A stretch of 57,998 nucleotides of DNA, taken from the NCBI GenBank assembly GCA_049320945.1, contig JBMOQT010000278.1, positions 1 through 57,998 of the forward strand, in the 5' to 3' direction. Of the stretch, positions 23,020 through 55,975 are shown one piece after another. A model generated the notes under the pieces. It saw only the letters and a program-made list of their open reading frames with translations, had not been told where the DNA came from and did no database searches. The first letter of the stretch is position 1. Every line of letters begins with the position of its first letter. This stretch comes from Pseudomonadota bacterium. Its GTDB lineage: Bacteria > Pseudomonadota > Gammaproteobacteria > Burkholderiales > Rhodocyclaceae. The position numbers and the translations under genes are program-made.

Positions 23020-23666
23020 GCCAGCGCCTCCAGCAGGCTGCCCACGCTGACCAGCGCGACGCCGTACAGGTCCTTCGCCAGCACGCTGGCCCCGGACGCG
23101 AGACGGCTCCGCTGCAGCTCGCGCCAGGCGACCGCCCTGCCGTCCGGAAAGCGGATCTCCCCATCGATGGGTGCGTGCTCGTCGGCACGTGCCAGGGCGG
23201 ACAGGCAGCCGGACAGCGCCCGCGCCTGCGCCACGTCGCACACCACATCCAGGTCGGAGGATGCGCGGCGGTAGCACTCCCCTGCCAGTTTCTCCCAAGC
23301 CGTGGAGCCATACACGCCGACGCTGACACCCAGATCCCGGGCCTGTTGGGCCAGCGCCTGCAGCGGCCCGACCATCCCCCGGGGCAGCACCTCCAGCACC
23401 GCGGCGACAGGCAGCGGCGGCTCGATGCGGGTGAGGGCGTGATGATCCACGACACAGGACAGGCGGCGGCGGCCCAGGCGGGCGGGCAGCACCGCGCCCA
23501 GGCGCACGCCGTCCGCGCCCTGCTCCTGGCGCGTCACCACCAGCGGCCGGCCGGTGCACAACCAGTCGCGCAGCCAGGTGGCAGCCGGCTCGTCAGGCGG
23601 GCCGGCACATACCGGCGCTTCCGGCCGGAGGTACGCCAAGTCGTGGCGGCGCAGGGCGGGAGACAT
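23016..23666 (-). CDS. mdcG: phosphoribosyl-dephospho-CoA transferase (holo-ACP synthase)
   Basis: MSPALRRHDLAYL...GVYGSTAWEKL...DLDVV. ATG 23666 lies 1 nt below the mdcE stop. Confidence 0.75.
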   Translation of the reverse strand: MSPALRRHDLAYLRPEAPVCAGPPDEPAATWLRDWLCTGRPLVVTRQEQGADGVRLGAVLPARLGRRRLSCVVDHHALTRIEPPLPVAAVLEVLPRGMVGPLQALAQQARDLGVSVGVYGSTAWEKLAGECYRRASSDLDVVCDVAQARALSGCLSALARADEHAPIDGEIRFPDGRAVAWRELQRSRLASGASVLAKDLYGVALVSVGSLLEALA

Positions 23667-23667
23667 C

Positions 23668-24387: not shown

Positions 24388-25301
24388 GTCGCCCTCGCTT
24401 GCTCGGTCATCCGCACGAAGTCCTCCACCTCGGCCATGGAAAGGGCGGCCGGGTCGGTCAGCCCCAGGATCTGCCACACCTGCGCGCCGTCACGCATTCC
24501 CGCGTAGCGCTCGGCACGCCGCGCAAGCGCGGCCTGGCGCGCCCGCAGGCGCGCCAGGGTCGGCGCCGACTCCGCCACCGCGCGCGCCAGCTCGGCAGCC
24601 GCGGCGCGGAAGGCGACGATGTCGTCGCGCACCAGGCGGTCGCAGTCGCCGATCAGGTAGCGGTGCTTGCCGCCGGTGACGCGCCACACCAGCGCCCGGT
24701 CACGGGAATCGAATTCCTCCACGCCTGCCACGGTCTCGATCACCTCCGGCCCGGACAACGACAGCCGCCCCTCCTCGGACATGATGACCGCCGAGCACAA
24801 GCGCGCCACGATACCCATGCCGCCGAAGGCACCGCACAAGCCGCCGATGAGGCACAGCACCGGGACGCCGGCGGCGCGCACCTCCAGCACGGCACGCATG
24901 ATCTCGGAGATGGCGACCAGCCCGGCATTGGCCTCGTGCAGCCGCACCCCGCCGGAGTCGGCGAGCAGCAGCACCGCCCGCGGCCGGTCGGCGAGGGCGC
25001 GGCGCAGCAGGCCAACGATCTTGGCGCCGTGGCATTCGCCCACCGCGCCGCCCATGAACTGCCCCTCCTGGGCTGCCACCAGCACCGGCAGACTGTCCAG
25101 AAGGCCGCGGCCGACCACGACGCCGTCGTCAAGGGCACCCGGGACGCCCAGGCGCAGCAGGTGCGGACTGGGTGCGCTCTGGTGCGGCGGCAGGAACTCG
25201 GCGAAGGAACCGGGATCGAGCAGCTCCGCCACCCGGGTGCGGGCCGTGGCCTCGAGCCAGCTCCTGCCGGCACGGGGATGGAACTCGGGCGCGGCGCTCA
25301 T
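24384..25301 (-). CDS. mdcD: malonate decarboxylase beta subunit
   Basis: MSAAPEFHPRAGRSWLE...LLLADSGGVRLHEANAG carboxyltransferase fold. ATG 25301 overlaps the mdcC stop. Confidence 0.85.
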   Translation of the reverse strand: MSAAPEFHPRAGRSWLEATARTRVAELLDPGSFAEFLPPHQSAPSPHLLRLGVPGALDDGVVVGRGLLDSLPVLVAAQEGQFMGGAVGECHGAKIVGLLRRALADRPRAVLLLADSGGVRLHEANAGLVAISEIMRAVLEVRAAGVPVLCLIGGLCGAFGGMGIVARLCSAVIMSEEGRLSLSGPEVIETVAGVEEFDSRDRALVWRVTGGKHRYLIGDCDRLVRDDIVAFRAAAAELARAVAESAPTLARLRARQAALARRAERYAGMRDGAQVWQILGLTDPAALSMAEVEDFVRMTEQARAT

Positions 25302-25609
25302 CGGGCACCTCCCAGGTAGGCGCGCAGCGCCTGCTCCAAACGCAGCGTCACCACCGCCGGTGTAGCACCCATATCGTTGATGGTGATGCGCGTGCAGCCC
25401 ACGGGGTGCCGCCGGACGAAGGCCTCGAGCACGGCGGCCCAGGTGTCGCGGAAGCCCACGGCGGACGTGGTCACCGAGACGCTGCAGGTTTCGCCGGACG
25501 CTTCCGGCTGGATGAGCACCTCCAGGTTGCCCGAGCCCACTACGCCGCACAGGGTAGGCGGCGCGGCGGCGATGGGGCGGGAGGCCAGCTTGAATTCCAG
25601 TGTCTCCAT
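25298..25609 (-). CDS. mdcC: malonate decarboxylase delta subunit (acyl carrier protein)
   Basis: METLEFKL...CGVVGSGNLEVL. 103 aa. It starts 4 nt after the mdcA stop. Confidence 0.85.
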   Translation of the reverse strand: METLEFKLASRPIAAAPPTLCGVVGSGNLEVLIQPEASGETCSVSVTTSAVGFRDTWAAVLEAFVRRHPVGCTRITINDMGATPAVVTLRLEQALRAYLGGAR

Positions 25610-25613
25610 GTGG

Positions 25614-27254
25614 TCACCAATTCCTGAAGCGGGCTGGCGGGTGGTACAGCCCCCCCGACCAGCGGACCAGATCCTTGATCGAGCGCGCCGCCAGCAGGTC
25701 GCGGGTGGCAAGGCGGGGGTCGATGCCCAGATCCTCGGCGCGGCGGATCACGCCCCGGTCGCGCAGGTTCTCCACCGCCGCCGCGTCACGCCTTCGGCCC
25801 ACCGGAGTGAAGCCGGCGACGCCGCGGATCGCCTGCTCCCGCTCCTGCGCCGTGCGGCACAGGAGCAGATTGGCGATGCCCTCCTCGGTGACGATGTGGG
25901 TCACGTCGTCGCCGTGGATCATGATGGGCGGCAGCTCCATGCCCATGCCCTGCATCAGCTCCCAGGCGTCGAGGCGCTCGACGAAGGCAGGCTGCATGTG
26001 CTCGCGGAAGGTCTCCACCATCTGCACCACCAGCTTCTGGCCGCGGGTGACCGGGCCGCCACCCGAACGCTCGCGCCCGGCCTTGAGCCAGGCCGGACTG
26101 GCATGGCGTCGGCCCCGGGCATCCGAGCCCATGTTGGGCGCGCCGCCAAAGCCGGTGATGCGGCCAAGTGTGGCGGTGGAGCTGTTGCCCGCCAGGTCGA
26201 TCTGCAGGGTCGAGCCGATGAACATGTCGCAAGCATAGAGTCCGGCGGTCTGACAGAAGGCCCGGTGAGAGCGCAGGCTGCCGTCGCGCCCGGTGAAGAA
26301 CACGTCGGGCCGGGCGGCGACATAATCCTCCATGCCCACCTCGGAGCCGAAGCTGTGCACCGACTCGACGAAGCCCGATTCGATGGCGGGAATGAGGGTG
26401 GGGTGCGGGTTGAGGGCCCAGTGGCGACAGATCTTCCCCTTGAGCCCCAGCTCCGCGGCATAGGTGGGCAGCAGCAACTCGATCGCCGCCGTGTCAAAGC
26501 CGATGCCGTGATTCAGGCGCTGCACGCCGTACTCGGCGTAGATGCCCTTGAGCGCCATCATCGCCATGAGCACCTGAATCTCGGTTATCTGCGCCGGATC
26601 GCGGGTGAACAGGGGTTCGATGTAGTTGGGCCTGGGCGCGACGACGAAGAAGTCCACCCAGTCCGCCGGGATGTCCACCCGGGGCAGCGCAGCGCACAGC
26701 TCGTTCACCTGGGCGATAACGATGCCGTCCTTGAATGCCGTGGCCTCGACAATGGCCGGGGTGTCTTCGGTGTTCGGCCCGGTATACAGGTTGCCCGCGG
26801 CGTCCGCGGCCTGGGCGGCGATCAGGCATACGTCGGGAGTGAGATCGACAAAGTAGCGCCCGAACAGCTCCAGGTAGGTGTGGATGGCGCCGATCTCGAT
26901 TCGCCGCGTCTGCACCAGCTTGGCCAGCCGCGTGCCCTGAGGGCCGGAGAAGGAGAAGTCGAGCTTCTTGGCCAGGCCGCGCTCGAACAGCTCGATGTGG
27001 GCCGGCAGCGCCAGCACCGACTGCACCAGGTGCAGCTCGCGCACCCGCTGCGGCGAGCACCGGGCCAGGGTCTCGGCCAGGAAGTCCGCCTGCTTCTGGT
27101 TGTTGCCCTCAAGGCAGACCCGGTCGCCCGGCTCCAGCACCGCCTCCAGCAGCGCCACCGCGTCGGCGGCGTCCACGCGCTTGGCGCGGGCCAGGTCGGC
27201 GGCCCGCGCCAGGCGCGCCCTGCGGCTGTCCGCTCGATCGTTCCAGGTGCGCAC
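25614..27254 (-). CDS. mdcA: malonate decarboxylase alpha subunit (acetyl-ACP:malonate ACP transferase)
   Basis: 546 aa. ...VCLEGNNQKQADFL...IHTYLELFGRYF. The GTG start directly abuts the dctM stop (TAG-GTG). Confidence 0.88.
   Translation of the reverse strand: MRTWNDRADSRRARLARAADLARAKRVDAADAVALLEAVLEPGDRVCLEGNNQKQADFLAETLARCSPQRVRELHLVQSVLALPAHIELFERGLAKKLDFSFSGPQGTRLAKLVQTRRIEIGAIHTYLELFGRYFVDLTPDVCLIAAQAADAAGNLYTGPNTEDTPAIVEATAFKDGIVIAQVNELCAALPRVDIPADWVDFFVVAPRPNYIEPLFTRDPAQITEIQVLMAMMALKGIYAEYGVQRLNHGIGFDTAAIELLLPTYAAELGLKGKICRHWALNPHPTLIPAIESGFVESVHSFGSEVGMEDYVAARPDVFFTGRDGSLRSHRAFCQTAGLYACDMFIGSTLQIDLAGNSSTATLGRITGFGGAPNMGSDARGRRHASPAWLKAGRERSGGGPVTRGQKLVVQMVETFREHMQPAFVERLDAWELMQGMGMELPPIMIHGDDVTHIVTEEGIANLLLCRTAQEREQAIRGVAGFTPVGRRRDAAAVENLRDRGVIRRAEDLGIDPRLATRDLLAARSIKDLVRWSGGLYHPPARFRNW

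Positions 27255-33513: not shown

Positions 33514-33517
<4 letters not shown>
32717..33517 (-). CDS. TauE/SafE (DUF81) family anion exporter, paralog of 20377..21186
   Basis: GLFGVGGGLTLVP and SMRAHHRHGAV motifs shared with the first copy. Its start overlaps the EVE gene stop by 4 nt. Confidence 0.8.
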
Positions 33518-33978
<461 letters not shown>

Positions 33979-34040: not shown

Positions 34041-34252
34041 GGGATCCCCCGCCTGTGCCGTCAGGCCGGCATCCTGAACCGGTAGGTTCAGTGTGGCTGC
34101 GTTCCGGTCACCGTAGGCGCTTCCGACGGAGGGATGCGCTCAAAAGTGACGCTTGAGTCCGCGGCCTATGCCAGATAGTTGGTTCAAGGAATGTATGGCC
34201 TTGACCAACACCGCAGGGGAAATCGGTGGGCGACCAACCGCGAGGCAGGGGC
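34041..34252 (-). ncRNA. ssrS: 6S RNA (ends approximate)
   Basis: Lies immediately downstream of zapA, as in the classical zapA-ssrS arrangement. The closing stem CCCCUGCCU/AGGCGGGG pairs the two ends. An internal 3'-side hairpin CUGAACC-uacc-GGUUCAG resembles the E. coli UUGAACC-aag-GGUUCAA element. Confidence 0.6.
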
Positions 34253-34904: not shown

Positions 34905-35117
34905 CTGGAGGCGCAACGAGTCCCAAGGTGCCTACGCGGCGTTCCGCCGCAGGGTTAAACGGGAATGAGGTAAGTAGGCGCTTACAGGTGCCATGAAGCC
35001 TCAGCTGCCCCCGCAACGGTAAGCAAGCGCGGGCGCGCCAACCACGCCACTGGGCAACCAGCCTGGGAAGGCGGCGCGTCAAGACTTGCGAGCCCGGATA
35101 CCGGCCTTCGGACCCAC
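34905..35117 (+). promoter_or_regulatory. cobalamin (adenosylcobalamin) riboswitch
   Basis: Core elements read directly: GGGUUAAACGGGAAU, GCUGCCCCCGCAACGGUAAG, GCCACUG, GGGAAGGC and a B12-box-like AGCCCGGAUACCGGCC. It lies upstream of a TonB-dependent receptor. Confidence 0.8.
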
Positions 35118-35248
35118 ATGCGGAACTGCCGCGGGGAGCGGCGGCCGAATGCGGACCCGTCCCTTTCGACCCTCAGCTTCCTCCGGCAGTTTCATGTCGC
35201 CAATCTTTCCGGCGGCGGGGACGCGCGCCGGGAATACAGGGAGCAACC

Positions 35249-37063
<1,815 letters not shown>

Positions 37064-43714: not shown

Positions 43715-44413
43715 TTATTTGCCCTTGATGAAGCCGTACTCGATCAGCCGCAGGTCCTCGTCCCTGACCAGCCCGATCCCGGGGGCATAATATTTGTACT
43801 CTCTCGCGCCGATTTCGATGGCCGAGCCTTCCCTGACTTTCAGGCACTTGGCGAACGTACCCGCGGGCGTCCTGCAGGTCTCGTCGAGACTGACGATCTC
43901 CGCCCGGTCCATCGCCACGCCGGGCGCGATCTCCTGGTAGTACTTCATCTTCAATTTCGGCGTTCCGGCCATCATCAGGCCGGGGCGGTTGCCGTTCTGG
44001 CCCGCGAGCCACGAGCCGTCGTGCTTGACCACCTTGCCGTCCCGGTAGAAATCCACGTCCTCGCCGAAGTAGAACACGTCCCTGGTCTGCTCGCACAGGG
44101 CGAAGTAATTCCTCGAGACTTCGTACAGCTTCCCGTCTTTCCACTCCCTCTCCTCGACCACGCGCGTGACGATCCCATCGACCATCCTGGTTTCATCGAG
44201 GACCGTGATCTCGAGCTTCGTGTCATCCCCCTGGAGGACGAGCCGGAAACCGGGCTCCAGGACGAAGTAGTCATTGCGACCCGTCGTCAGCAGTTGGCAC
44301 TGGGAGATACCGAACTCCTCCTGCCACGGCGAGTTCCTTGCCTTGACTTGCGCATGGGCGGCGGCAGCCGCCAAGATCGCCGCAACGGCGAAGGCAAATG
44401 CTCGGGTAATCAT
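43715..44413 (-). CDS. secreted hypothetical protein, last gene of the RND cluster
   Basis: MITRAFAFAVAAILAAAAAHA signal peptide, AAAGGAG SD, and no recognisable family. Confidence 0.65.
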   Translation of the reverse strand: MITRAFAFAVAAILAAAAAHAQVKARNSPWQEEFGISQCQLLTTGRNDYFVLEPGFRLVLQGDDTKLEITVLDETRMVDGIVTRVVEEREWKDGKLYEVSRNYFALCEQTRDVFYFGEDVDFYRDGKVVKHDGSWLAGQNGNRPGLMMAGTPKLKMKYYQEIAPGVAMDRAEIVSLDETCRTPAGTFAKCLKVREGSAIEIGAREYKYYAPGIGLVRDEDLRLIEYGFIKGK

Positions 44414-44427
44414 GGAACGCTCCTTTC

Positions 44428-45981
44428 TCACCACCAGAACTTGGCCAGCACGCTGATGCCCTTGTCGGCGCGGCGGAACGCGGGATTGTCCGGGTCGGTG
44501 GTGATGTCGTTGCGCAAGGCCCTGCCGGGAAAGAACCAGCCCATCCTCAAGTCCAGCCCGAGCCGGCGCACGCCGAACAGGTTGCGGAACCCCAGCACGA
44601 TGTCGAACGCCTGCCCCACGTCCTTGCTCGGCGGCCGCGTGGAATCCTGGTTCATCTCGGCCGTGAGGGCCCAGTTGCGAATCTCCTCCGCAAACCGGTT
44701 CAGCCGGTACTTGTGATACACCAGGTCCACGTGCACGCTGGTCGCCGGCCGGAAGCCGAAGCCCAGGGTGAAAATCCGCAGGTTGGACAGTTCCGGGTCG
44801 AGCACCTCGCCGTAGTACTTGAACTTGGACACGCCCCCCATCCTCAGTTCATTCGACTGCAGGCCGGTCTGGCGGAACTCGGTATTCCGGTTGTCATTCG
44901 GGTCACCATCGCTGGTCCCGCTTGCATAACCCAGGGTCACATTGGGATAGAGGGGCAGATCCGGGAACCGGTAGGTGGCGCCCACATCGAAGGCGTGCGC
45001 GCGCAGCTTGCGCTGCGCCTCGTCCCTGCCCCGCACCGAAGCCAGCTCGGCCCAGAAGTTGAATCTGTCGGAGGGCATGCCGTAGGCGCGCACGCCCGTA
45101 TGCACGGGCTTCCCCTCCTTGCCCGTGCGATCAGCCTGGTAGATGGTGTAGCCGGCCAGCCTGATGTCTTCGATGCCCCGGTAGTCCACGTACAGCATGT
45201 AGTTGTCGATGCGGGGCAGCTTGACCGGCTTGAGCAGATCCAGGTCTATCGCATCCTGTCGCCCATAGCTCAGTTCGGCACTGAGGGCGCCTTGCCGGAA
45301 CCTGACGAAGGCGGAATCCAGCGACGTGTCGTAGAGCCAATGCCGGTCGTCCTCGAAATTGCGCCGCCCCAAGGTGACATCGAACGGGCCCAGGGCCCTG
45401 AACCTCACCCAAAGCTGGTCCACCGGCAGCGAGGTGCGCCGCCTCTCGGCCACCTGTGTCGTGCCGTTCGGCAGAGTGACGACCTTCTGCTCCCGTGCCG
45501 CGATCTCCCTCTCCAATATCATCTCCAGCATCATCTCCAGCCAGTCGTTCGGTCGATAGATGATGTATCCGTTGACTTGAGGCGCGAGAATGAGGGAATT
45601 GTCCCTGAGCCGCTTGTCCAGATCCTTGTCACGGCGGTAAGTGGCGTCCGATTCGCTGCCGTACGAGTACTGGTACTTCAGGAACTGGGTCACCGGCCGT
45701 GGGGGTCTGCCGATGCGTTCGGCCGCTGAAGGCAGCTGGAAGGTCGGCATGCCTTCCGGCGCACGCGGTCTGACGGCCGGCTGCTGGGCCCCGGTCTCCG
45801 GCGGCGGGCCGACCTCCTGGGGTGCTGGGCGGGGCGCCTGGAATTGCGCCAGGTGCCCCCCGGCCCTGTCGCTGTGGGCACCCGCCCCCCTTTCCACTTC
45901 GGCCTGCGCGAGAACCGGCTGGCTCCAGCTCAGCAGGACGGCAAGCGCCGTCGGCCACCCTACGGCAAGCGCCCCGGTCAT
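44428..45981 (-). CDS. outer-membrane beta-barrel protein, alginate-export (AlgE)-like porin family (family call tentative)
   Basis: Signal peptide ...PVLAQA and a Pro-rich N-terminal linker. Alternating beta-strand pattern with many R/Y/D pairs. C-terminal aromatic signature ...VLAKFWW. GGGAGG SD. Confidence 0.6.
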   Translation of the reverse strand: MTGALAVGWPTALAVLLSWSQPVLAQAEVERGAGAHSDRAGGHLAQFQAPRPAPQEVGPPPETGAQQPAVRPRAPEGMPTFQLPSAAERIGRPPRPVTQFLKYQYSYGSESDATYRRDKDLDKRLRDNSLILAPQVNGYIIYRPNDWLEMMLEMILEREIAAREQKVVTLPNGTTQVAERRRTSLPVDQLWVRFRALGPFDVTLGRRNFEDDRHWLYDTSLDSAFVRFRQGALSAELSYGRQDAIDLDLLKPVKLPRIDNYMLYVDYRGIEDIRLAGYTIYQADRTGKEGKPVHTGVRAYGMPSDRFNFWAELASVRGRDEAQRKLRAHAFDVGATYRFPDLPLYPNVTLGYASGTSDGDPNDNRNTEFRQTGLQSNELRMGGVSKFKYYGEVLDPELSNLRIFTLGFGFRPATSVHVDLVYHKYRLNRFAEEIRNWALTAEMNQDSTRPPSKDVGQAFDIVLGFRNLFGVRRLGLDLRMGWFFPGRALRNDITTDPDNPAFRRADKGISVLAKFWW

Positions 45982-45998
45982 AGTCCTCCCTTGTCATG

Positions 45999-48900
45999 TT
46001 AGATGTCCGCCAGGCCCAGGTCCGAGTGGCGTCCCGCCGCCGCCCCGATGACCAGATACAGGGCGGGTATGACGAACAGGGTGACCAGGGTGGCGGCGAT
46101 CAGGCCCCCTATGATAACCAATGCCATGGGCTGCAAGATCTCGAGGCCGGGATTCCCGCCGAAAATCACGATGGGCAGGAACATGGCGACGATTGCCGCG
46201 GAGCTCGCCAGGATGGGCGACAGTCTTTCCCGCGTGCCGCGCAGCACCAACTCGGGACCAAACGGCACGCCTTCCTGGGCCTCGAGGCGCTGGTAATGGT
46301 TGATCAGCACGACGCCGTTGCGGGCGGCAATGCCCAGCACCGCCAGGAAGCCGACGACCGAGCCCAGGGACACCACGCCACCGCTGGCCAAGGCCCCCAG
46401 CACCCCGCCGACAAACGAGGCCGGGAGAGCCAGGAAGGCGATCAGCGCCAGCCGCCAGCTCCGGAAGCAGGCCTGCAATAGAAGGAAGATGCCGATCACC
46501 GCGGCAACGGCCACACCCACCATGCGCCGCTGGGCAGCCTGCCGCTCGGCGTATTCACCCAGGATTTCCGGGTGATACTCGAGCGGGAACTGGATCTCCT
46601 CGAGGCGGTCCTCGATCTCGTCCACCACCGAGCCCGGATCACGCCCGGCCACGTTGGCCACCACATCGACGTAGGGAGCGATGCGCTCGTGCCTGATGAC
46701 CGTCGGAGCCGCCACGATGCCTACGTCGGCCACCTCGCCCAGACGCACGTAGGTGCGATCCGACTTCTCGACCCACACATCGCGCAGATTGTTCAAGCTC
46801 TGGCGCGTCTCGGGCGTCCCCCAGACCACCACCTCGTAGATCTTCTGTTCCTTGAAGAGATAGCCGACCACCAGTCCGGAGAACACCGTCGCCGAAGAGC
46901 GCCGCACGTCGCCCGGCTTCACGTTCGCGCGGCTGGCGGCATCCAGGTTCACCTTCACTTTCACTTGGGGCTCCATCACCTGGCCGCCGGCGCGCAGATC
47001 GACGAGTCCCTTGACCCCGGAAAGCGCCTGTCTGACCTCCTCCGCCTTCCGAGCCAGGACCTCGCGCTGTTGGCCGTAGATGCGCACGACGATCGCCTTG
47101 CTCTCGCCGGTCAGCACCTCGCCGACTTTGTCGCGCAAGTAGGTCTGGACGTTTCGTTCGATGCCCGGGTAGCCCTCGATCGTGTCTCGAATCGCCGCAA
47201 CCGTCTTGTCGTAGTCGGCCTTGGGATCGAGGCTTATCCAGATCTGGCTCGAATTGATCCCCACCACCTGGTCTCCCGTTATCGCGCGTCCCACGTGCGC
47301 ACTTACGGCGCGCACTCCGGGCAGCGACCGCAATTCGCTGCTGACCCGGGATGTGATCCGGTACGTCTCGGGATGGGACGTACCGGGGGGTGTTGTCCAG
47401 TTCACCAGCAGTTCTCCCTCCTTGAGCGCGGGAAGCAAGGAGTGCCCGAGCAACGGCCATATGCCGGCGCCGATCACCACTGCGGCGCAAGTGGCGAGAA
47501 ACACCTTGCCCGGTGCGCCCAGAACCCCTCGCAGCATGCCATCGTATCGATCGACAAGCCGCGCCGCCAGCGGCGAGCCGCGCCCCCGGCTCGCCACTTT
47601 GCCCAGGAGCAACAGGCCCAGGGCGGGCGTTACCGTCAGCGCCACCGCCATGGACGCCAGCACCGCCAGCACGTAGGACAGGGCGAGCGGCTCGAAGAAC
47701 GCTCCCGATATCCCGCCCATGAAGAACACTGGCATGACGGCGAGTATGACGATGAGACTGGCGTACAGGGCGGCGCGCCGGGACTCCAGCATGGTCTGAT
47801 AAATGATGCCCAGAATCGGGGCGCCGTCTTCGCGGGGCCCCCGCAGCCGCTCCAGAAGCAGATCCACATCGACGACCGCATCATCGATGACCACTGCAAG
47901 GGCGACCACCAGACCGGCAAGGATCATGGTGTTGATCGTCGCACCGGTCAGGTGCAGGGCCAGCAGGGCGGCCAGGAGCGAAAGCGGGATCGCCACGATG
48001 CTGATCAACGTGGTCCGCCAATTGAACAGGAACGCGCCGATGACCAGGATCGCCAAGACGGCACCGATGATGATCGCCTGGGTCAGATTGGACAGGGAAT
48101 CCTCCACATAGGAGGCCAGCCGGAAGACGCTGCTGTCGATCTGCACGCCGGGCAGGCCAAGGCGCAGCTCGGCCAGCGCCCGCTCGACTCCGCGCGTGAC
48201 TTCCAGCGTGTTGGCCGAGGGAAGCTTCTCGACAACCAGCAGGAGGCCGTTGCCGCCGTTGACGAAAGCATCACCGATGAGCGGCGGATGGTGGAACGTC
48301 ACCTCGGCGACCTCGCCCAGGGACATGGTCTTGCCGGTCATCAGCAGGTGCTGCGCCCCAACCGGCACCTTGGCCATGTCTTCGGGCTGCGAAATCGGCA
48401 TGTCGTGATGAACCCCGATTCTCTGATTCTTGTTGTCGATCCAGCCGCCCGTCCCGGGCGCCGACGCCTTCAGATAGGTCAAGGGCGACACCCACAACGA
48501 GTCTCCGGCGGCGGCGACGATGTCGTCCTGCAGCAGACGTGCGTCGCGCAACCGATCGGAATCGATATGGACATGCAGCTGCCGCACCCGCTGGCCCCAG
48601 ATCGCCACGTTGGCCACGCCGGGCACGCCCGTCAGCTTCGGCTTGATGGTCCAGCGGGCAAGCAGCGACAACTCCGTCGGCTCCACCGTCTGGGATGAGA
48701 TCGCGATCATCATGAGACGGCTGGTCGACGACAGGGGCTGCAGGATAACGGGCGGCGATGCCACGTTTGGCAGGGTATACGCCAGGGTCAGGCGTTCCTG
48801 GATCATCTGCCGGGCCTTCATGATGTCGGTGCCGCGCTTGAAAGTGAGCATGATCGAGGACAGACCGGTCACCGACTGGGAGCGGATCGATTCGAGCCAC

Positions 48901-49130
48901 GGCACGCCGGAGAGCAGCTCCTCCAGATTGAGGGTGACCAGGCTCTCCACTTCCTCGGCGGACAGCCCGATCGCTTCGGCCTGCACCTCCACGATGGGCG
49001 GCGAGAATTCGGGGAGGACATCGACCGGCATCCTCTTGAGCTGGATGATCCCGAACAGGACCAGCGCCGCCGCGACACCCAGCGCCAGGAAGCGGAACTT
49101 CAGGCTTGAGCCAATGATCCAGCGAAACAT
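45999..49130 (-). CDS. RND superfamily efflux permease, copy 2
   Basis: 1043 aa with a 12-TM/2-loop RND layout. TM4 motif VIDDAVVDVDL. Shares the N-terminus MFRWIIGSSLKFRF with copy 1. Confidence 0.88.
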   Translation of the reverse strand: MFRWIIGSSLKFRFLALGVAAALVLFGIIQLKRMPVDVLPEFSPPIVEVQAEAIGLSAEEVESLVTLNLEELLSGVPWLESIRSQSVTGLSSIMLTFKRGTDIMKARQMIQERLTLAYTLPNVASPPVILQPLSSTSRLMMIAISSQTVEPTELSLLARWTIKPKLTGVPGVANVAIWGQRVRQLHVHIDSDRLRDARLLQDDIVAAAGDSLWVSPLTYLKASAPGTGGWIDNKNQRIGVHHDMPISQPEDMAKVPVGAQHLLMTGKTMSLGEVAEVTFHHPPLIGDAFVNGGNGLLLVVEKLPSANTLEVTRGVERALAELRLGLPGVQIDSSVFRLASYVEDSLSNLTQAIIIGAVLAILVIGAFLFNWRTTLISIVAIPLSLLAALLALHLTGATINTMILAGLVVALAVVIDDAVVDVDLLLERLRGPREDGAPILGIIYQTMLESRRAALYASLIVILAVMPVFFMGGISGAFFEPLALSYVLAVLASMAVALTVTPALGLLLLGKVASRGRGSPLAARLVDRYDGMLRGVLGAPGKVFLATCAAVVIGAGIWPLLGHSLLPALKEGELLVNWTTPPGTSHPETYRITSRVSSELRSLPGVRAVSAHVGRAITGDQVVGINSSQIWISLDPKADYDKTVAAIRDTIEGYPGIERNVQTYLRDKVGEVLTGESKAIVVRIYGQQREVLARKAEEVRQALSGVKGLVDLRAGGQVMEPQVKVKVNLDAASRANVKPGDVRRSSATVFSGLVVGYLFKEQKIYEVVVWGTPETRQSLNNLRDVWVEKSDRTYVRLGEVADVGIVAAPTVIRHERIAPYVDVVANVAGRDPGSVVDEIEDRLEEIQFPLEYHPEILGEYAERQAAQRRMVGVAVAAVIGIFLLLQACFRSWRLALIAFLALPASFVGGVLGALASGGVVSLGSVVGFLAVLGIAARNGVVLINHYQRLEAQEGVPFGPELVLRGTRERLSPILASSAAIVAMFLPIVIFGGNPGLEILQPMALVIIGGLIAATLVTLFVIPALYLVIGAAAGRHSDLGLADI

Positions 49131-49150
49131 GTCCAGGCCCCTTCGCGTCG

Positions 49151-50074
49151 CTATTTCTTGAAGATCTCGGCGCCGTACAGCAAGGCCGCGCCGACCGTGA
49201 CCACCGGGGTGCCGACCGCCGGCCCCTCGGACAACAGCGCCATGTCGCCCACGACCCGATCGACGGCGATGCGCTGGCGTTCGAATGTCAGGGGTTTGGT
49301 GTTGACGTACACCCAGGCATTGCCCTTCGCGTCGTAGTAAACCGCGCTGTAGGGCACGGCCTTCTGCTTGACCTCTTCCCCGGCGAGCTGCAGCTCGACC
49401 CGCATGCGATTGTTCAGTGCCAGGCCATGGTCCTTGCCGGGCACTTTGTAATACAGCGACAGCATCGAGCGCTTCAGGTCCTCAAACGGCTGCATTCCGG
49501 ACGGCTCCGCCAGCAACTCCTCGACAGGGTGCGCGCGCGTGGGCAGGGGCAGGAGCCGTGCCGGCTTGTCCTTGGCCAGCCGCTCATACTCGGCCGGCGA
49601 CAAGGTGACGAGCACCCAGACCTCGCCGGCGACCGGTGTGCCCGCTGGCGCCGCACCCGGTTGCGGTGACGACGCCGCTGCCGCGACCGGCCGGGCCATC
49701 CCCGAGGCCCCTCCTCTGCCCAAGCCACCGAACAGGCCGCCGCCCGGCTTCGACTCGGGCGGCTTGTCCAAGGGAGGAACCACCAGACCGCCGACCATCT
49801 GCTTGCGCTCGACCGACTCTTCACTCACTTTGCCAACTTCGATGCCCAGCCGTTCCGCCGCTCTTGCGCTCAGGATCACGCGCGGCACGCTGCTCCCGGG
49901 GACGCTCTCCAATGTGACCTGAGGATTCCTGGCGTCCGGCCCTGACCCCGGCCCCGCCGCGCGCCCCGCGGGTGCCAGCATGAGCAGCCCCGCCGCTGCC
50001 GTGACAACCAGCCCGCCAAGCAACGCTCCTGCCATGCGATCGGCCCTCACGCGGATCAAGAATTCCGTTTTCAT
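49151..50074 (-). CDS. RND periplasmic adaptor-like protein lacking the alpha-helical hairpin
   Basis: The N-terminal anchor and the C-terminal barrel/membrane-proximal region look like a membrane fusion protein (MFP) (AVPYSAVYYDAKGNAWVYV...RQRIAVDRVVGDMALLSEGPAVGTPVVTVGA). The middle is a Gly/Pro/Ala low-complexity linker. Confidence 0.65.
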   Translation of the reverse strand: MKTEFLIRVRADRMAGALLGGLVVTAAAGLLMLAPAGRAAGPGSGPDARNPQVTLESVPGSSVPRVILSARAAERLGIEVGKVSEESVERKQMVGGLVVPPLDKPPESKPGGGLFGGLGRGGASGMARPVAAAASSPQPGAAPAGTPVAGEVWVLVTLSPAEYERLAKDKPARLLPLPTRAHPVEELLAEPSGMQPFEDLKRSMLSLYYKVPGKDHGLALNNRMRVELQLAGEEVKQKAVPYSAVYYDAKGNAWVYVNTKPLTFERQRIAVDRVVGDMALLSEGPAVGTPVVTVGAALLYGAEIFKK

Positions 50075-50109
50075 TTGGTGCCTCCTCTCAATCTCTTCGT
50101 GCTCGCTCC

Positions 50110-50868
50110 CTACAGCGGCGGCACGATGCCGTCCTTGCCGACGATAATGAAGGCCGCCACATACTTGCCCTCGGCATCCTGCTGGGCACCTGCCAGAACG
50201 TGGGCACCCACCTTCATTAAACTCCTGTCTCCGAGCGACATCCGGAGGACCGGCGCGTCACGGGGTATCTCCATATCCGTTTCGTCATAGTCAGTGGGGC
50301 CCCACTTGATCGACAGGACGCGAATCTCGATATCGTCGACCCAGCCGTGGGAGATGATGGTGTCGGGTGTCAGATCCCACTTCCTGTGTCCCAGGGCGAT
50401 GCCGCGCAACTCCTCGTCGATGATGCGCAGCTCGAACCCCCTGTGCAGCCACACCGCCGAGTCCCGGACTATGGGGCTGTACTCCTCCAGCTTCACCCCC
50501 ACGGAACCGACATAGGTCCCAAAATCCACGCTGGAAAAGCTTCCCTTGCTCAGGCCGATGATGGTGGTGGTGTCTGCGAGCGCGAGGCGCACCGTCCTGC
50601 CGTCGCGCGTCCTCACCACGACAGAAGAAGCCTCGACCCTGGTGATCTGGCCGCGGAAATGGTCCGGCTCCCCGTCCTGCACCGGTGCGGGGGTGTGAGT
50701 GTCCGCTGCCGCGTCTTTTTCCGGTGTTCGCACCTTGCGCTCGGCTGCCGCCTCTTGAGCCGGCGCAGCCGCGCCGACCCGCGGCGCCTCTTGCGCGCCT
50801 GCCGGCGCACCCAGCGCCAGAGCGATGACTGAACCAATCACCGCGTAGTAAGAGAGCGGGCGAGCCAT
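50110..50868 (-). CDS. secreted hypothetical protein (DUF5666-like beta domain at N-terminus)
   Basis: Signal peptide ...APAGAQE. GQITRVEASSVVVRTRDGRTVRLALADTTTI pattern. AGGAGG SD. Confidence 0.6.
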   Translation of the reverse strand: MARPLSYYAVIGSVIALALGAPAGAQEAPRVGAAAPAQEAAAERKVRTPEKDAAADTHTPAPVQDGEPDHFRGQITRVEASSVVVRTRDGRTVRLALADTTTIIGLSKGSFSSVDFGTYVGSVGVKLEEYSPIVRDSAVWLHRGFELRIIDEELRGIALGHRKWDLTPDTIISHGWVDDIEIRVLSIKWGPTDYDETDMEIPRDAPVLRMSLGDRSLMKVGAHVLAGAQQDAEGKYVAAFIIVGKDGIVPPL

Positions 50869-50889
50869 CTCTTTCCTCCTGCCTTCTCC

Positions 50890-53800
50890 CTAACCCGATG
50901 ACCCTCGGACGGATACCGCGCCAGCCTCGCTGGAGCGGACGGCGCCGAACTTCAGGTACAGGACCGGCACGACGAACAGGCTCAGCAGCATCGAGGTGAC
51001 GAGGCCGCCCAGAATGGCAACTGCCATCGGGTACTCGACCTCGTGACCGGGAATGCTGCCGGGAACAATCAGGGGCAGCAGGGCCAATGCGGCGGAAAGG
51101 CTGGTCATCAGGATCGGCGACAGCCGTTCGCTCGCCCCGCGCATGATCAGCCCGAGACCGAAGGGCTCGCCCTCTTCCCGCTCGAGATGCCGGTAATGCT
51201 CGATGAGCAGAATGCTGTTCCTTGCCGACAGGCCCAGTACCGTGATGACTCCCACCAGCGAACCCAGTGAGACGACGCGGCCGACTGCGAAGGTTGCGAG
51301 CAAGGAGCCAACGAGCGCCGCCGGCAGGGCGAGATAGATCAGGCCGGCGAGTCGCCAGTTGCGGAAGGTCGCCTGGAGAATGAAGACGATGGCGATGGCA
51401 ACGCCGATGGAGGCGATCAGCAGATTATGCTGGGCGGCTTTGCGTTCCTTGTATTCCCCCAGCAGCTGCGGGTGATAGCCGACGGGGAACTCCACTTTCG
51501 CGAGCCGCTCCGCGACCTCGTTCGCCACCGCGCCGAGATCACGCCCCTTGACGTTGGCGTGAACGTCGATGCGCCGGGACATGTTTTCGCGCTTGATCTT
51601 GTTCGGGGTCGGCACGAGTTCCACGTCGGCCACCTCTCCCAGCCGCACACGCCCGCCATACGGGGTGTTGATCAGATACTCGCGGATGCTGTGCAGGTCG
51701 CGGCGCCTTGCCTCCGATGCCCAAACGAAGACGTCGTACACCTTGCCTAGTCTGTGAACGTCCGTGACTTCGATGCCCGCCATGAGCGCAGCCACCGCCA
51801 CGCGGATGTCGCCCGGTTTCACCCCATGGCGCGCCGCCGCATCCAGGTTCAACCTGATACGTATTTGCGGAATCTCGATCTGCTGCTCCATATGCAGATC
51901 GACGAGGCCGGGTATATCCTTGAGCGCGTCTTCCACGTCCCGCGCCTTTTGGCGCAGCACCGGGAGTTCGTCGCCGAATATGCGCACGACGATCGACTCG
52001 CCCGCGCCGGTCAGGACTTCCTTGATCCGCTCCCGCAGATAGGTCTGCACGTCGCGATAAAGCCCGGGATAGCCGGCGACGGCGGCTTCCACGGCGGCGC
52101 GCGTCTTGTCGTAGTCCACCTTCGGATCGACGCTGATCCAGTTCTCGGTGAAATTCACGCCGTAGGGTTCGTCCCCACCGACCGCGCGGCCGATGTGGGC
52201 GCCGAAGTTGCGCACCCCGGGAATGGAGCGAAGCTCACGGCTGGCCAGTTGCGTGATCCTGAAGGTTTCGGGGTGCGAGGTTCCCTCGGGCGGGACCCAG
52301 TGCATGAGGAAGTCCCGTTCCTTGAACTCGGGCAGCAGCGAATGTCCGAGGAAGGGCCAGACCGCCACGCCGGCGACGGCGACGGCGATCGCGGTCGCCA
52401 ACGTCGCACCCGGTGCCCGGACCGCTCGCGCAAGCAGCGCGTGGTAGTGCTTCTTGAGCCACGGCACCAGGGGCGACTGCCGGTGCTCGAGGGCGCGCCC
52501 CCGCAGCAGAAGAAGGCACAGGGCTGGCGTAACGGTGCACGCCACAACCATCGAAGCCAGCATCGCGGTGAGGTAGGCCAGCGCCAGCGGTTCGAAGAAC
52601 GCGCCCGCGAGTCCACCCATGAAGAACACCGGCGTCACCGCCAGCACCACGATCAGCGTCGCGTGCACGATGGCGGAACGCACCTCGACCGATGCTTCCA
52701 GGATGATGCGTGCCGTCGATTTGTCGCTGCCGGCCCTGCGGTGCTCGCGCAGCCGCCGCACGATGTTCTCGACGTCGATGATGGCATCGTCCACCACGTC
52801 GCCGAGGGCGACAATGAATCCGGCCAACACCATGGTATTGATCGTGGCGCCCTGGAAATAAAGCACGACGCCGGCAGCCACCAGGGACAGGGGGATGGCG
52901 GTGATGCTGATCAGGGCCACCCGCCATTCGTAGAGGAAGGCCCCGAGGACGATGATCACCAGGACGGCGCCGATGATGAGCGCCCTGGTCAGGTTGTCGA
53001 TCGACAGATCAATGAAGGTGGCCGGCCTGAAGATCGTGGAGTCGATGTCGATGCCCGGAAGACCGGGGCGCAACTCGGCGAGCGCCGCCTCGACTCCCCG
53101 GGTGACCTCGAGGGTGTTGGCCCACGGCAGCTTCTCGACGATCATCATCAGGCCGACCCCGTCGTTGATGACCGAATCACCGAGAAGCGGCCAGGTGTCC
53201 CAGGTCAAGCGGGCGACATCGCCCAGCCGCGGCGGATCGGCGCGCCTGGTTTTCACGGCGATCGGCACCTGGGCCAGCTGCTCGGGCGTGAACACGGGCG
53301 ATTCGTAATGAATGACGAGCCGCTGGTTGGGGGTATCGAACATCCCGTGGATACGGGTCTTCGCGTGGCGGGTGTATTGCAGCAGGCTGAAGTCCAGGGC
53401 GTTCGAGGTCGTCTCCATGACCTCGTCCAACGTGACGTTGTGGGCGCGCATCAGGTCGGGATCGAACTGCACGTGCAGCGCCTTGATCCGTTCGCCCCAG
53501 ATGGGAACATTGGCCACGCCGGGAACCGACATGAGACGGAACTTGATCGTCCAGTAGGCGATCATCGAGAGATCCATCATGTCGTAGACCTTGGACGAGA
53601 TTCCGATCTTCATCGCCCGGCTGGTGGACGACAGGGGTTGCAGTATCACCGGCATGCCCGAGGACGACGGCAGATCGGCGATCGCCAGTTGCAGGCGCTC
53701 CTGCACGCGCTGCCGCGCATCCATGAGATCGGTGCCCAACTTGAACCAGAGCACGATCTGCGACAGCCCCTCCACCGACGAGGAACGGATGACGTCCACG

Positions 53801-54033
53801 TTCGGCGTTCCCCGCAGCGCCTGCTCCATCGGAAGGGTGATCAGCTCCTCCACCTCGCTGGCGGTCATGCCGATGCCTTCCGTCTGGATTTCCACCTTGG
53901 GCGGCGCGAACTCGGGGAATACATCGACCGGCATCTTGCGCAGTTGCTCGGTTCCAAAGAACAACAGCGCAGCGGCGACGGCCACCACCAGGAAGCGGAA
54001 CTTGAGGCTGGAGCCAATAATCCATCTGAACAT
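50890..54033 (-). CDS. RND superfamily efflux permease, copy 1
   Basis: ATG 54033 is preceded by GAGGAGAGG, and the product begins MFRWIIGSSLKFRF. TM4 motif VVDDAIIDVEN. 1047 aa. The track ORF extension to 54150 is not supported. Confidence 0.88.
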   Translation of the reverse strand: MFRWIIGSSLKFRFLVVAVAAALLFFGTEQLRKMPVDVFPEFAPPKVEIQTEGIGMTASEVEELITLPMEQALRGTPNVDVIRSSSVEGLSQIVLWFKLGTDLMDARQRVQERLQLAIADLPSSSGMPVILQPLSSTSRAMKIGISSKVYDMMDLSMIAYWTIKFRLMSVPGVANVPIWGERIKALHVQFDPDLMRAHNVTLDEVMETTSNALDFSLLQYTRHAKTRIHGMFDTPNQRLVIHYESPVFTPEQLAQVPIAVKTRRADPPRLGDVARLTWDTWPLLGDSVINDGVGLMMIVEKLPWANTLEVTRGVEAALAELRPGLPGIDIDSTIFRPATFIDLSIDNLTRALIIGAVLVIIVLGAFLYEWRVALISITAIPLSLVAAGVVLYFQGATINTMVLAGFIVALGDVVDDAIIDVENIVRRLREHRRAGSDKSTARIILEASVEVRSAIVHATLIVVLAVTPVFFMGGLAGAFFEPLALAYLTAMLASMVVACTVTPALCLLLLRGRALEHRQSPLVPWLKKHYHALLARAVRAPGATLATAIAVAVAGVAVWPFLGHSLLPEFKERDFLMHWVPPEGTSHPETFRITQLASRELRSIPGVRNFGAHIGRAVGGDEPYGVNFTENWISVDPKVDYDKTRAAVEAAVAGYPGLYRDVQTYLRERIKEVLTGAGESIVVRIFGDELPVLRQKARDVEDALKDIPGLVDLHMEQQIEIPQIRIRLNLDAAARHGVKPGDIRVAVAALMAGIEVTDVHRLGKVYDVFVWASEARRRDLHSIREYLINTPYGGRVRLGEVADVELVPTPNKIKRENMSRRIDVHANVKGRDLGAVANEVAERLAKVEFPVGYHPQLLGEYKERKAAQHNLLIASIGVAIAIVFILQATFRNWRLAGLIYLALPAALVGSLLATFAVGRVVSLGSLVGVITVLGLSARNSILLIEHYRHLEREEGEPFGLGLIMRGASERLSPILMTSLSAALALLPLIVPGSIPGHEVEYPMAVAILGGLVTSMLLSLFVVPVLYLKFGAVRSSEAGAVSVRGSSG

Positions 54034-54313
54034 CGACAATACCTCTCCTCGCACAGTCCGTTGCTGTGCAAGTTCTCTGACCGCCGACGGAATTATTAGC
54101 CCTCGCAGCGCTGACCCATGTGCGCAGTCCGTGAGCTCGGACGCACGCAACGGGTCACCATGTTTCGGGTTAGTTCAGGCCAAGTGCGAAGTCAACCTAT
54201 CGACTCCGACTGCCACGGAGGCATACCATGCCCTGACTGGCTGATTGAGTGGACCGCCAAAGGACGGCGGTCCATACTTTGCACCGTGCGCACCAGCCAG
54301 GGGGGAAGATCCC

Positions 54314-55975
54314 GTGGAGCGGGCGGTCCAATCAGCCACCGAAGCCGTCGTCGTCCGGCATTTCCGCCAGATCCTGCTGTGGCCGCTGCAACTGGTTCCG
54401 GTCAAGCCCGGCGACCAGATTCAGCGGCACTGGCAGTACCTGGAGCGGGCCGGCGACCACCCGTGGCGGGAGGTGGCCGACGAGTTCACCGGCGACCCGT
54501 TGGAGTTCAAGGAACGCCACTACGCCGAGTTCGTCACCTTCCTGCCCCATGTGCAGCGTTTCCTGTACGGTGAGGGGGTGGGTGCGGGCCCGGGATCGGG
54601 CTACGGCGAGTCACCGATCCGCGTGTTCCGGCGTCGCGACGTGGCCGCAGTACGCATCGTCTCCCGCCACAGGGACGAACCCCTGGTGTTCCAGGTGGCC
54701 CATGTGGACCTCTATTTCTTCTACGATCTGGACGTCGTCATCCTGGCGCTGGAGGTGTTCGCCGACGACCTGGAACTGGGCCGGGTCCAGGATGCCCTGT
54801 ACCGCTTCGGGCGCGCCTATCCTCCCTACTGGAACCCGGACGGAACGGGGGCCCACTGCCCGAAGCGGGTGGAGTGGCTGGCGGCCGACGGCACGGTGCT
54901 CTCGGTATCGGACTACGAGCGGCGGGAGAAATATCTTGCGTTCGTCTGCCGCCATCGGGCGCCGTGCATCGCCTCCCACTGGGAGTATCTGCTCAGCCCC
55001 ATGGTGCTGCACCATTCGGACGCGCCCGGCGCGATGCGCTACCGCCAGATCGAGTACCACCGCATGCCCCTCATGGGCTTTCTCTCCCTGGACGACCCTC
55101 ATGCGCTGACCCGCGCCCAGTTCGTGCGCCTGGGCCTGGTGACCGCGCCGGGCAACCCGGATGCGCTGCCCTATGCCGAGGGCCACGTGGCGGACTTCGA
55201 GACCCGGTATTGCTACGACCGCTACTGGGAGGAGGGGGAGGCCAGCACCGACACCCGTTTCCTGTGCTGCGGCCACGCCCTGATGATGGTGGGCAACCAC
55301 AACGAGGCCCTGTTCGAGGATCCGGAAACGGGGCTGCTGTCCCAGTTCCGGCACCAGTATTTCCTGCTGTTCCTGATCGCCCACCTGCACAAGGCGGCCC
55401 TGCTCATGTTGTCCGACCGGCTGGTGGTGGCAATCAGCAAGCTGGACATCCACGATGCGGAGTCGGTGAAGCAGTTCAAGCGCATCATCCGCCAGACCCT
55501 GGAGATCTTCCTGCGCTTCACCCACCGCTACTGGTTCCACGAGATCTCTGACCAGGTCCAGATCAAGGGCCTGTTCCGCATGGCCGCCGAGCATCTCGGC
55601 ACCGACCGGTTGTACGCGGAGGTGCGCGAGGAGATCGAGGACATGAGCCAGTACCTGGAAAGCGACACCCTGCGCCGCCAGGCCAACACCGTGATCCGGC
55701 TCACCGTGGTAACCGTGTTCGGCCTGATCGGCACCCTCACCACCGGCTTCCTGGGCATGAACCTCCTGGCCGCCGCCGACTGGCCCCTTGGTCAGCGGCT
55801 GGCCTTTTTCATCGCCATTACGCTTCCCGTCATCGCCCTCACCCTGTACACGGTGGTGAAGTCGAAGCGCCTGTCCGACTTCCTGGAGGCGCTCTCCGAC
55901 GAGCGCCTGCCGTCCCACGCCAAGCTTGCCGCCCTGCTCGATGTATGGCGCAGGAGAGCGCCGCGCCATCCATGA
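54314..55975 (+). CDS. CorA-like divalent-cation channel family protein with oversized N-terminal domain
   Basis: C-terminal TM1-GFLGMNL-TM2 (GMN signature). The start is uncertain: I prefer GTG 54314 (GGGGGAAG 5 nt upstream) over the track TTG 54245. Confidence 0.7.
   Translation: MERAVQSATEAVVVRHFRQILLWPLQLVPVKPGDQIQRHWQYLERAGDHPWREVADEFTGDPLEFKERHYAEFVTFLPHVQRFLYGEGVGAGPGSGYGESPIRVFRRRDVAAVRIVSRHRDEPLVFQVAHVDLYFFYDLDVVILALEVFADDLELGRVQDALYRFGRAYPPYWNPDGTGAHCPKRVEWLAADGTVLSVSDYERREKYLAFVCRHRAPCIASHWEYLLSPMVLHHSDAPGAMRYRQIEYHRMPLMGFLSLDDPHALTRAQFVRLGLVTAPGNPDALPYAEGHVADFETRYCYDRYWEEGEASTDTRFLCCGHALMMVGNHNEALFEDPETGLLSQFRHQYFLLFLIAHLHKAALLMLSDRLVVAISKLDIHDAESVKQFKRIIRQTLEIFLRFTHRYWFHEISDQVQIKGLFRMAAEHLGTDRLYAEVREEIEDMSQYLESDTLRRQANTVIRLTVVTVFGLIGTLTTGFLGMNLLAAADWPLGQRLAFFIAITLPVIALTLYTVVKSKRLSDFLEALSDERLPSHAKLAALLDVWRRRAPRHP

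Follow-up and report, generated by a model that had tools for sequence, protein, structure and literature searches.

To our knowledge, every structurally described efflux system of the resistance-nodulation-division (RND) type in diderm bacteria exits via a TolC-family trimer which is opened by the hairpin of an adaptor protein. How, then, could an RND operon work that carries an AlgE-type barrel and no TolC-family gene? This question is raised by six minus-strand open reading frames (ORFs) at positions 43715-54033 of contig JBMOQT010000278.1 from a member of the Rhodocyclaceae (assembly GCA_049320945.1; the whole stretch of 57,998 nucleotides is referred to as the window). They form one operon encoding two RND permeases (RND1 and RND2), an adaptor (G3), an outer-membrane barrel (G5) and two secreted proteins (G2 and G6). 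The adaptor is modeled without lipoyl and hairpin domains, the block of six genes recurs in several phyla, and only one of the two permeases carries a set of putative metal ligands. We favor, at a probability of roughly 45%, the reading that the operon is a mobile, self-contained export module built around two RND paralogues that are obligate partners, whose cargo would be a metal cation relayed via the barrel without a TolC tunnel.

Organization of the operon

All six ORFs were found where they had been predicted from the sequence:

RND1: 50890-54033, minus strand, 1047 amino acids from ATG; RND permease, putative substrate-binding subunit
G2: 50110-50868, minus strand, 252 amino acids; secreted, putative periplasmic carrier or accessory protein
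G3: 49151-50074, minus strand, 307 amino acids; two-domain periplasmic adaptor (as modeled)
RND2: 45999-49130, minus strand, 1043 amino acids; RND permease, paralogue of RND1
G5: 44428-45981, minus strand, 517 amino acids; beta-barrel protein of the outer membrane, Alginate_exp (AlgE) family
G6: 43715-44413, minus strand, 232 amino acids from ATG; secreted, putative periplasmic ligand carrier
5′ intergenic region: 54034-54244, minus strand; between RND1 and a divergent CorA-like gene, presumed promoter site

Although the ORF of RND1 formally reaches an upstream TTG at 54150, the start is placed at the ATG at 54033, which is preceded by a Shine-Dalgarno site and agrees with the aligned starts of 22 orthologues. 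The intergenic gaps within the operon amount to 21, 35, 20, 17 and 14 nucleotides, a GGAGG-like Shine-Dalgarno sequence lies upstream of each of the six starts, and none of the gaps contains a terminator-like site, while across the operon region as a whole terminator-like matches (eight) did not exceed the level of shuffled sequence (5.0 ± 2.4). For these reasons the genes are regarded as a single operon, as had been proposed from the gap lengths and the strong Shine-Dalgarno sites. All six genes revealed the coding signature of a G+C content far higher at third (GC3, 0.79-0.86) than at second codon positions (GC2, 0.40-0.50).

Within the region 54034-54244, no match to the sigma-70 consensus was detected, and a window-wide scan gave neither an Rfam family at gathering score in this region nor anything near the cluster. 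The upstream regions of 23 orthologous clusters can be aligned at the Shine-Dalgarno site and the start codon only, and they do not share a conserved element.

The adaptor protein

The HMMER search that had been suggested with the original prediction recovered ACR_tran in both permeases and Alginate_exp in G5 and gave no Pfam domain match for G3. NCBIfam revealed only weak C-terminal matches of this protein to the CzcB and RND_mfp (TIGR01730) models. An AlphaFold2 model calculated from 24 homologues reached a predicted local distance difference test (pLDDT) value of 71.7, residues 109-144 being below 50. Foldseek searches with this model returned MexA, AcrA, CusB, BesA and ZneB (E = 1e-8 to 1e-7, probability 1.00), with alignments that span about 155-160 of roughly 340 target columns. 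The order of the secondary structure elements, together with HMM matches restricted to the C-terminal third, indicates that G3 is composed of a beta-barrel and a membrane-proximal domain.

At the position usually taken by the lipoyl and hairpin domains, G3 has a disordered, Gly/Ala/Pro-rich linker (approximately residues 101-149, about 49628-49774), the length of which differs several-fold among the 24 homologues. A KPxGGxFGGFG motif, nearly invariant, marks its beginning, and in many homologues a GFGGFG copy comes after it. One or two FG motifs of the form GxFGGFG(K/R) occur, with an Ala/Pro-rich spacer of very variable length between them. Judging from the short fold alignment, the disordered residues 109-144, the length-variable linker and the missing Pfam match, G3 as modeled has neither a lipoyl nor an alpha-helical hairpin domain and would therefore have no part able to contact an outer-membrane factor (OMF) or to open it. 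The single adaptor of the operon, which had been described as atypical, is thus more unusual than originally thought. More than 600 clusters of G3 homologues were retrieved and all those with a source name are labelled 'hypothetical'.

The barrel and the two periplasmic proteins

G5 is a confident member of the Alginate_exp family (PF13372; 224 bits at a cut-off of 25.2, E = 3e-66, profile positions 9-384 of 395) and not of the OEP family, which agrees with its initial description as an alginate-export rather than an OprM/TolC protein. AlgE is its sole real relative in the PDB, albeit a weak one (E = 4e-8 over about 130 residues). The domain OEP/TolC (PF02321) was found neither in the six proteins, the large window ORFs scanned and the annotated copy of the contig, nor within 10 kb of the cluster in five Pfam-annotated contexts, and the predicted lack of a TolC-family channel therefore stands for this range. 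Alginate genes (alg8, alg44, algK, algX etc.) are likewise missing in the five annotated contexts and in the window. An Alginate_exp gene in the nrf (nitrite-reductase) operon of Bacteroides demonstrates that the family is used outside alginate contexts. At its N-terminus, G5 possesses a long, Pro-rich and hypervariable extension (approximately residues 26-97, about 45691-45906), which cannot be aligned between orthologues. In almost all of 21 aligned orthologues, however, an (A/S)QFQLP motif is located about 25 residues upstream of the first barrel strand, and this FQLP motif may be a docking peptide. The isoelectric point (pI) of the barrel domain is 9.1. Overall, neither the charge nor the pI values calculated for the barrel and the periplasmic proteins gave a clear hint on the cargo.

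The two secreted proteins had been introduced as unknowns. For G2 this still holds as far as direct matches are concerned, since no Pfam or NCBIfam model was matched above its cut-off; G6 on the other hand marginally matched DUF3108_like (PF21347; 27.6 bits at a cut-off of 27) with its C-terminal 47 residues only. A profile of G6 also matched PDB entry 3FZX (E = 6.5e-4), a structural-genomics protein named 'putative exported protein'. G6 is highly conserved (78% mean column identity over 19 orthologues from several phyla) and its four invariant cysteines probably form two disulfides.

DUF5666 (PF18914), one of the models suggested for the search, was not recovered with G2 itself, which scored 13.4 bits (E = 0.096) at a gathering score of 27 bits. 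It was recovered with distant relatives: an exhaustive profile search yielded 919 representatives, and 15 out of 30 sampled distant full-length relatives matched DUF5666 (best E 6e-9). These proteins of about 200 amino acids align over the whole core of G2, and the profiles suggest that G2 is a divergent relative of the DUF5666 family. The distant relatives are encoded by stand-alone genes in unrelated contexts and do not provide a clue to function; the 641 homologues of G2 are, wherever a source name is given, labelled 'hypothetical'. In G2 itself, the N-terminal region is variable and rich in Ala and Pro, while the core is conserved and rich in acidic residues, His and Trp; long forms contain a KDAxADxHTPxP motif. 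Its AlphaFold2 model was poor (pLDDT 53) and produced insignificant OB-like Foldseek matches only, and a profile search of the PDB sequences did not give a match.

Hypervariable segments of low complexity containing short conserved motifs hence occur in three parts exposed to the periplasm, the G3 linker, the N-terminus of G5 and G2. From this pattern we infer that the FG, FQLP and KDAxADxHTPxP motifs are candidates for tethers or docking peptides.

Conservation and distribution of the gene block

By scanning one genome per GTDB species with a degenerate pattern, 32 loci were obtained, against which the six window proteins were searched by tblastn. All six genes are present in 22 of these loci, another six end at contig ends and are consistent as far as they can be read, and four are distant variants. 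The order RND1-G2-G3-RND2-G5-G6 is kept in the full loci except for a swap of G5 and G6 in loci of Variovorax and Polaromonas (L008, L009, L028, L031) and a rearrangement in L012. RND2 accompanies RND1 in every locus on a long enough contig, and orthologues of the cluster proteins are 62-78% identical. Thus, the cluster is conserved as a unit across phyla, a point on which the original prediction depended. Hosts belong to the Burkholderiales, Deferrimicrobiaceae, Rokubacteria, Troglogloeales and Alphaproteobacteria. Among those of the Burkholderiales are strains in culture, namely Variovorax paradoxus ISL-3, Variovorax sp. WS11 and Polaromonas sp. P2-4. The block was also found in the same order, together with one extra gene, on a metagenome contig from JGI. 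Clustering of the flanking ORFs of all loci did not reveal any recurring family. Since the flanks are not conserved while RND1 orthologues show a mean identity of 76% across phyla, the cluster appears to be a self-contained module that moves horizontally. A search of plasmids gave short RND fragments and no copy of the cluster.

The distant variants are smaller. A variant in a betaproteobacterial metagenome-assembled genome (L033) is composed of RND1, G3 and RND2, with no barrel nearby. Three contigs of 'Bacillati bacterium ANGP1' (L034, L035, L036), an actinobacteria-like genome, carry a distant RND pair; closer inspection of two of them revealed an RND2-like gene, a gene for a mini-adaptor and an RND1-like gene. 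On L034 (6533-13424) the mini-adaptor has 171 amino acids and the RND1-like gene is followed by a gene for a 424-residue protein without assignment, barrel, G2 and G6 being absent; L036 revealed two RND1-like matches, one of them partial. The contig L034 also encodes UPF0182, which we take to be typical of actinobacteria. The ANGP1 arrangement may be the core form of single-membrane bacteria. As the distant variants have no barrel, the RND pair together with the mini-adaptor looks like an ancient core to which the outer-membrane and periplasmic parts were added later.

Several related clusters contain a seventh gene. Its product, about 290 amino acids long with a C-terminal Phe and weak similarity to Phenol_MetA_deg (E = 7e-4), is probably a small barrel of the outer membrane. 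The gene was found at the following positions:

L004: 9057-9965
L012: 14468-15508
L019: 15796-16659
L020: 14469-15452
L021: 15069-15932
L030: 15089-15997

L012 and L020 possess in addition a further ORF for a secreted protein without family match (230 amino acids in L012). In the complete genome of Polaromonas sp. P2-4 (CP087965, L031, 6564-16659), RND1, G3, RND2, G5 and G6 are each split into two adjacent tblastn segments, which indicates either frameshifts in a decaying copy or assembly errors.

The RND permeases and their putative substrate

Both permeases are full-length members of ACR_tran (PF00873), with 710 bits for RND1 (residues 9-1029, profile positions 5-1020 of 1021) and 645 bits for RND2 over the same profile span. 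They are 51% identical over 1042 aligned positions, and orthologues share 70-76% identity within each of the two groups and 49% between them. This confirms that the proteins are diverged paralogues and not products of a recent duplication. Their identical N-termini comprise 15 residues, one more than had been reported. A recent duplication or gene conversion was considered as the origin of these identical residues and rejected, because the start MF-x-W-[IVL]-[IV]-G-S-S-L is kept in both orthologue groups, although identity between them is otherwise no higher than 49%.

The NCBIfam model with the highest score was for both proteins CusA/CzcA (TIGR00914; 550 bits for RND1, 482 bits for RND2), but neither of them reached the curated cut-off of this heavy-metal efflux (HME) family, 701.45 bits; generic multidrug RND models scored slightly lower. 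In the PDB, ZneA (339 bits) and CusA (311 bits) were closest, followed by AcrB-type pumps with about 250 bits. Orthology to MdtB and MdtC can be dismissed, as the equivalog models NF007798 and NF007905 gave 237-274 bits compared to cut-offs of 1584-1774.

For CusA, M573, M623, E625 and M672 have been published as metal ligands, and M271-M755 as a relay pair. Alignment of RND1 to CusA, with conservation read over 21 RND1 orthologues, resulted in the following correspondences:

CusA M573: H578 in RND1 (invariant), N578 in RND2
CusA M623: F628 in RND1 (invariant), S628 in RND2
CusA E625: E630 in RND1 (invariant), Q630 in RND2
CusA M672: E672 in RND1 (invariant), E in RND2
CusA M755: E755 in RND1 (invariant), V755 in RND2

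The Met triad M573/M623/M672 of CusA is thus not present in RND1, where H578, F628 and E672 stand instead. Invariant or nearly so (in at least 20 of the 21 orthologues) are H578, E622, E630, E668, E672, E755, D758 and H760, and of these E622, E668, D758 and H760 are altered in RND2 as well (Q622 at position 622). Judged by residue type, the His/Glu set of RND1 comprises plausible ligands for a cation harder than Cu(I). E622, E630, E668 and E672 may also correspond to proximal-site carboxylates of ZneA. Proton-relay residues were identified in both paralogues, which keep D415/D416 in transmembrane helix 4 (TM4) and R938 in TM10, while D420, E422 and N423 of TM4 are kept in RND1 and variable in RND2. 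The distant RND pair of ANGP1 likewise consists of one ligand-bearing and one degenerate copy.

Twelve Met residues of RND1 are also invariant or nearly so (56, 69, 127, 157, 168, 195, 206, 297, 491, 577, 976 and 1003). In RND2 these positions differ, being mostly occupied by Leu, Val or Ile. M577 adjoins H578, the residue at the position of CusA M573.

Comparison with known systems

Neither a characterised orthologue nor a paper describing the six-gene cluster was found in the literature, including by locus tags of the Variovorax orthologues, and the composition of the operon, which had been reported to match no described system, still has no counterpart there. In its gene logic, it resembles MdtABC and MuxABC of the hydrophobe/amphiphile efflux family HAE-1, each operon having two paralogous RND genes and one adaptor gene. 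Similar to the division of labor proposed for MdtB and MdtC, one paralogue looks competent for substrate and the other degenerate. On the other hand, the RND sequences are nearer to metal pumps and far from the MdtB/MdtC models, the adaptor is predicted to lack lipoyl and hairpin domains, and an AlgE-type barrel with two periplasmic proteins takes the place of TolC or OpmB.

By sequence, the cluster resembles the HME systems CusCFBA, CzcCBA and ZneCAB, to which the nearest solved structures and the closest curated family belong. It shares with CusA an acidic residue at the E625 position (RND1 E630) and with CusF the presence of a small periplasmic accessory protein encoded in the operon. What sets it apart, besides the score below the TIGR00914 cut-off and the replacement of the Met triad by His/Phe/Glu, is the possession of two RND genes, the two-domain adaptor, the lack of an OMF of the CusC/CzcC type and the AcrB-like Asp-Asp pair in TM4. 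The TM4 motifs of HME pumps, DFG...DGA or AIG...DAA, are not those of the cluster RNDs.

In the reduction of its adaptor, the cluster resembles BesABC of Borrelia burgdorferi. Reviews name BesA, which is among the Foldseek matches of G3, as an aberrant adaptor lacking the hairpin alone. Whereas BesA has kept its lipoyl domain and is paired with the TolC homologue BesC, G3 would have lost the lipoyl domain too, carries a disordered linker with FG motifs and has no OMF gene nearby. G5, finally, shares its family with AlgE of Pseudomonas but is neither linked to genes for alginate synthesis or for AlgK, AlgX or Alg44 nor devoid of a long Pro-rich, FQLP-bearing N-terminus, which separates it from AlgE.

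A possible export route and alternative explanations

In the reading favored here, RND1 and RND2 would probably combine in a mixed trimer in the manner of MdtB and MdtC, for which the strict co-occurrence of the two genes argues. RND1 would supply a substrate path of carboxylates and imidazoles at the metal-binding positions of CusA and ZneA, while RND2 would have lost most ligands and kept the transmembrane Asp-Asp/Arg proton relay. This difference between a ligand-bearing and a degenerate copy suggests an obligate heteromer with divided labor. The ligand pattern of RND1 favors a cation harder than Cu(I) as cargo; among metal complexes, polymers and lipids, the three cargoes that had been proposed, the residues thus speak for metal. 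The cation would most likely be drawn from the periplasm or the inner membrane. G3, reduced to its pair of pump-clasping domains, would be unable to form the alpha-helical tube that docks TolC. Its reduction, and the fact that the barrel and both secreted proteins are strictly inherited together with the pump, suggest a relay, in which the substrate would be handed to the soluble G2 and G6 instead of passing a sealed duct and would leave through the monomeric G5. The FQLP arm of G5 and the FG linker of G3 may tether the outer- and inner-membrane parts to each other. The complete picture, a heterotrimer on which two-domain adaptors form a ring-shaped cap, with FG loops in place of the tunnel and metal passing via G2 and G6 to an FQLP-tethered AlgE-type barrel independently of TolC, is more tentative than the general reading. 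That such an architecture would be distinct from every described tripartite efflux system is proposed with the same reserve.

A number of observations weigh against the favored reading. Both RND proteins remain below the curated HME cut-off, and the TM4 motif VVDDAIIDVEN resembles that of AcrB more than that of CzcA or CusA, so that a non-metal substrate is possible. Furthermore, a metal-responsive regulator, riboswitch or conserved operator accompanying the cluster was not found. In view of the AcrB-like TM4 and this missing linkage, metal is the leading hypothesis for the cargo and not a result. The barrel does not point to the exit of a cation in an obvious way, neither by its basic pI nor by its relationship to AlgE, which conducts a polyanion. 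The resemblance of G6 to DUF3108-like barrels and the extra barrel gene of some relatives, weakly similar to Phenol_MetA_deg, might suit a hydrophobic cargo. OMFs are surely encoded elsewhere in the proteobacterial hosts, and BesA exemplifies that an adaptor without hairpin still works with a TolC homologue.

The last two points lead to a conventional tripartite pump which borrows a TolC-type OMF encoded elsewhere and for which the barrel, G2 and G6 would be co-regulated accessories, for example a porin and periplasmic binding proteins. Operons of the E. coli type such as MdtABC and AcrAB are often devoid of an OMF gene of their own, both RNDs of the cluster are full-length ACR_tran proteins including the docking region, and the variant L033 does without a barrel nearby. 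An adaptor lacking both hairpin and lipoyl domain could, however, not reach or open the borrowed channel. Moreover, barrel, G2 and G6 travel together with the pump in 22 loci whose flanks are not conserved, which is hard to reconcile with loose accessories, and an OEP gene was not detected within 10 kb in five contexts. As it explains neither why the lipoyl domain was lost nor why barrel, G2 and G6 are inherited with the pump, we consider this possibility unlikely.

We assign about the same low likelihood to the export or insertion of a hydrophobic or polymeric envelope component, extracted by the RND pair, chaperoned by G6 and G2 and released by the barrel or barrels. Among characterised proteins, the nearest relative of the barrel is an alginate exporter, G6, which matches exported beta-barrel proteins of the DUF3108-like type and has two probable disulfides, would be suited as a stable periplasmic carrier, soluble carriers make sense for a cargo unable to diffuse freely, and the Phenol_MetA_deg-like barrel gene of some relatives fits as well. 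Yet no gene for a glycosyltransferase, a polymerase or lipid synthesis is linked to the cluster in any locus, and Alginate_exp proteins also occur in unrelated contexts, as in the nrf operon of Bacteroides. The RNDs are nearest to metal pumps and have invariant His and Glu at metal-ligand positions, and the lipid-handling RNDs HpnN and MmpL are absent among the best 60 PDB matches listed. A chance juxtaposition of unrelated envelope genes or an annotation artefact can be discarded for practical purposes, since the same six genes, with short gaps, a coding signature and identities of 62-78%, form a conserved block in 22 independent loci of several phyla.

Neighboring genes and other features of the window

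Divergent from the operon, a gene of the CorA family is located at 54245-55975 (plus strand), with 576 amino acids according to the ORF listing and 553 in the public contig. A GMN motif is present at the C-terminus of the protein, and its long N-terminal region gave no family match. Linkage of the gene to the cluster is confined to this contig and does not occur in any of the 32 related loci. At 20377-27254 (minus strand), about 17 kb or more away from the cluster, lies an operon for malonate decarboxylase (MdcA, a CitG-like protein and an acyltransferase) together with a malonyl-CoA decarboxylase gene. In Variovorax paradoxus ISL-3 (L037, 17614-20750), the cluster directly adjoins LysR, MatC and MdcA genes. 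The proximity of malonate genes in both is probably a coincidence of Burkholderiales synteny.

Farther away in the window, the following features were detected:

34909-35123, plus strand: cobalamin riboswitch (100 bits), directly upstream of a TonB-dependent receptor gene
35249-37063, plus strand: TonB-dependent receptor, with cobyrinic acid a,c-diamide synthase-like and corrinoid adenosyltransferase genes downstream
34042-34222, minus strand: 6S RNA gene (67 bits), adjoining the gene of an EVE-domain protein (33514-33978)
12878-14275, plus strand: selenocysteine synthase SelA
16154-16245, plus strand: tRNA-Sec gene, near SelA
13288-16152 (plus strand) and 13681-16191 (minus strand): overlapping long ORFs between SelA and tRNA-Sec, one of which may be SelB

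Implications for RND export

The cluster is a widespread and apparently mobile module which, as modeled, does without hairpin, lipoyl domain and OMF and comprises a monomeric barrel of the 18-strand type and two periplasmic proteins. If its parts work together, it would be a second solution for an RND pump to cross the outer membrane. It would also be a natural example of an RND pump that is obligately heteromeric and splits the work between its subunits, assign a role to the DUF5666-like and DUF3108-like families and add a new one for barrels of the AlgE family. Cultured and tractable Variovorax hosts make these ideas directly testable. The module may also be relevant to metal cycling by communities of soil and groundwater, among them Rokubacteria, Methylomirabilota relatives and Deferrimicrobiaceae.

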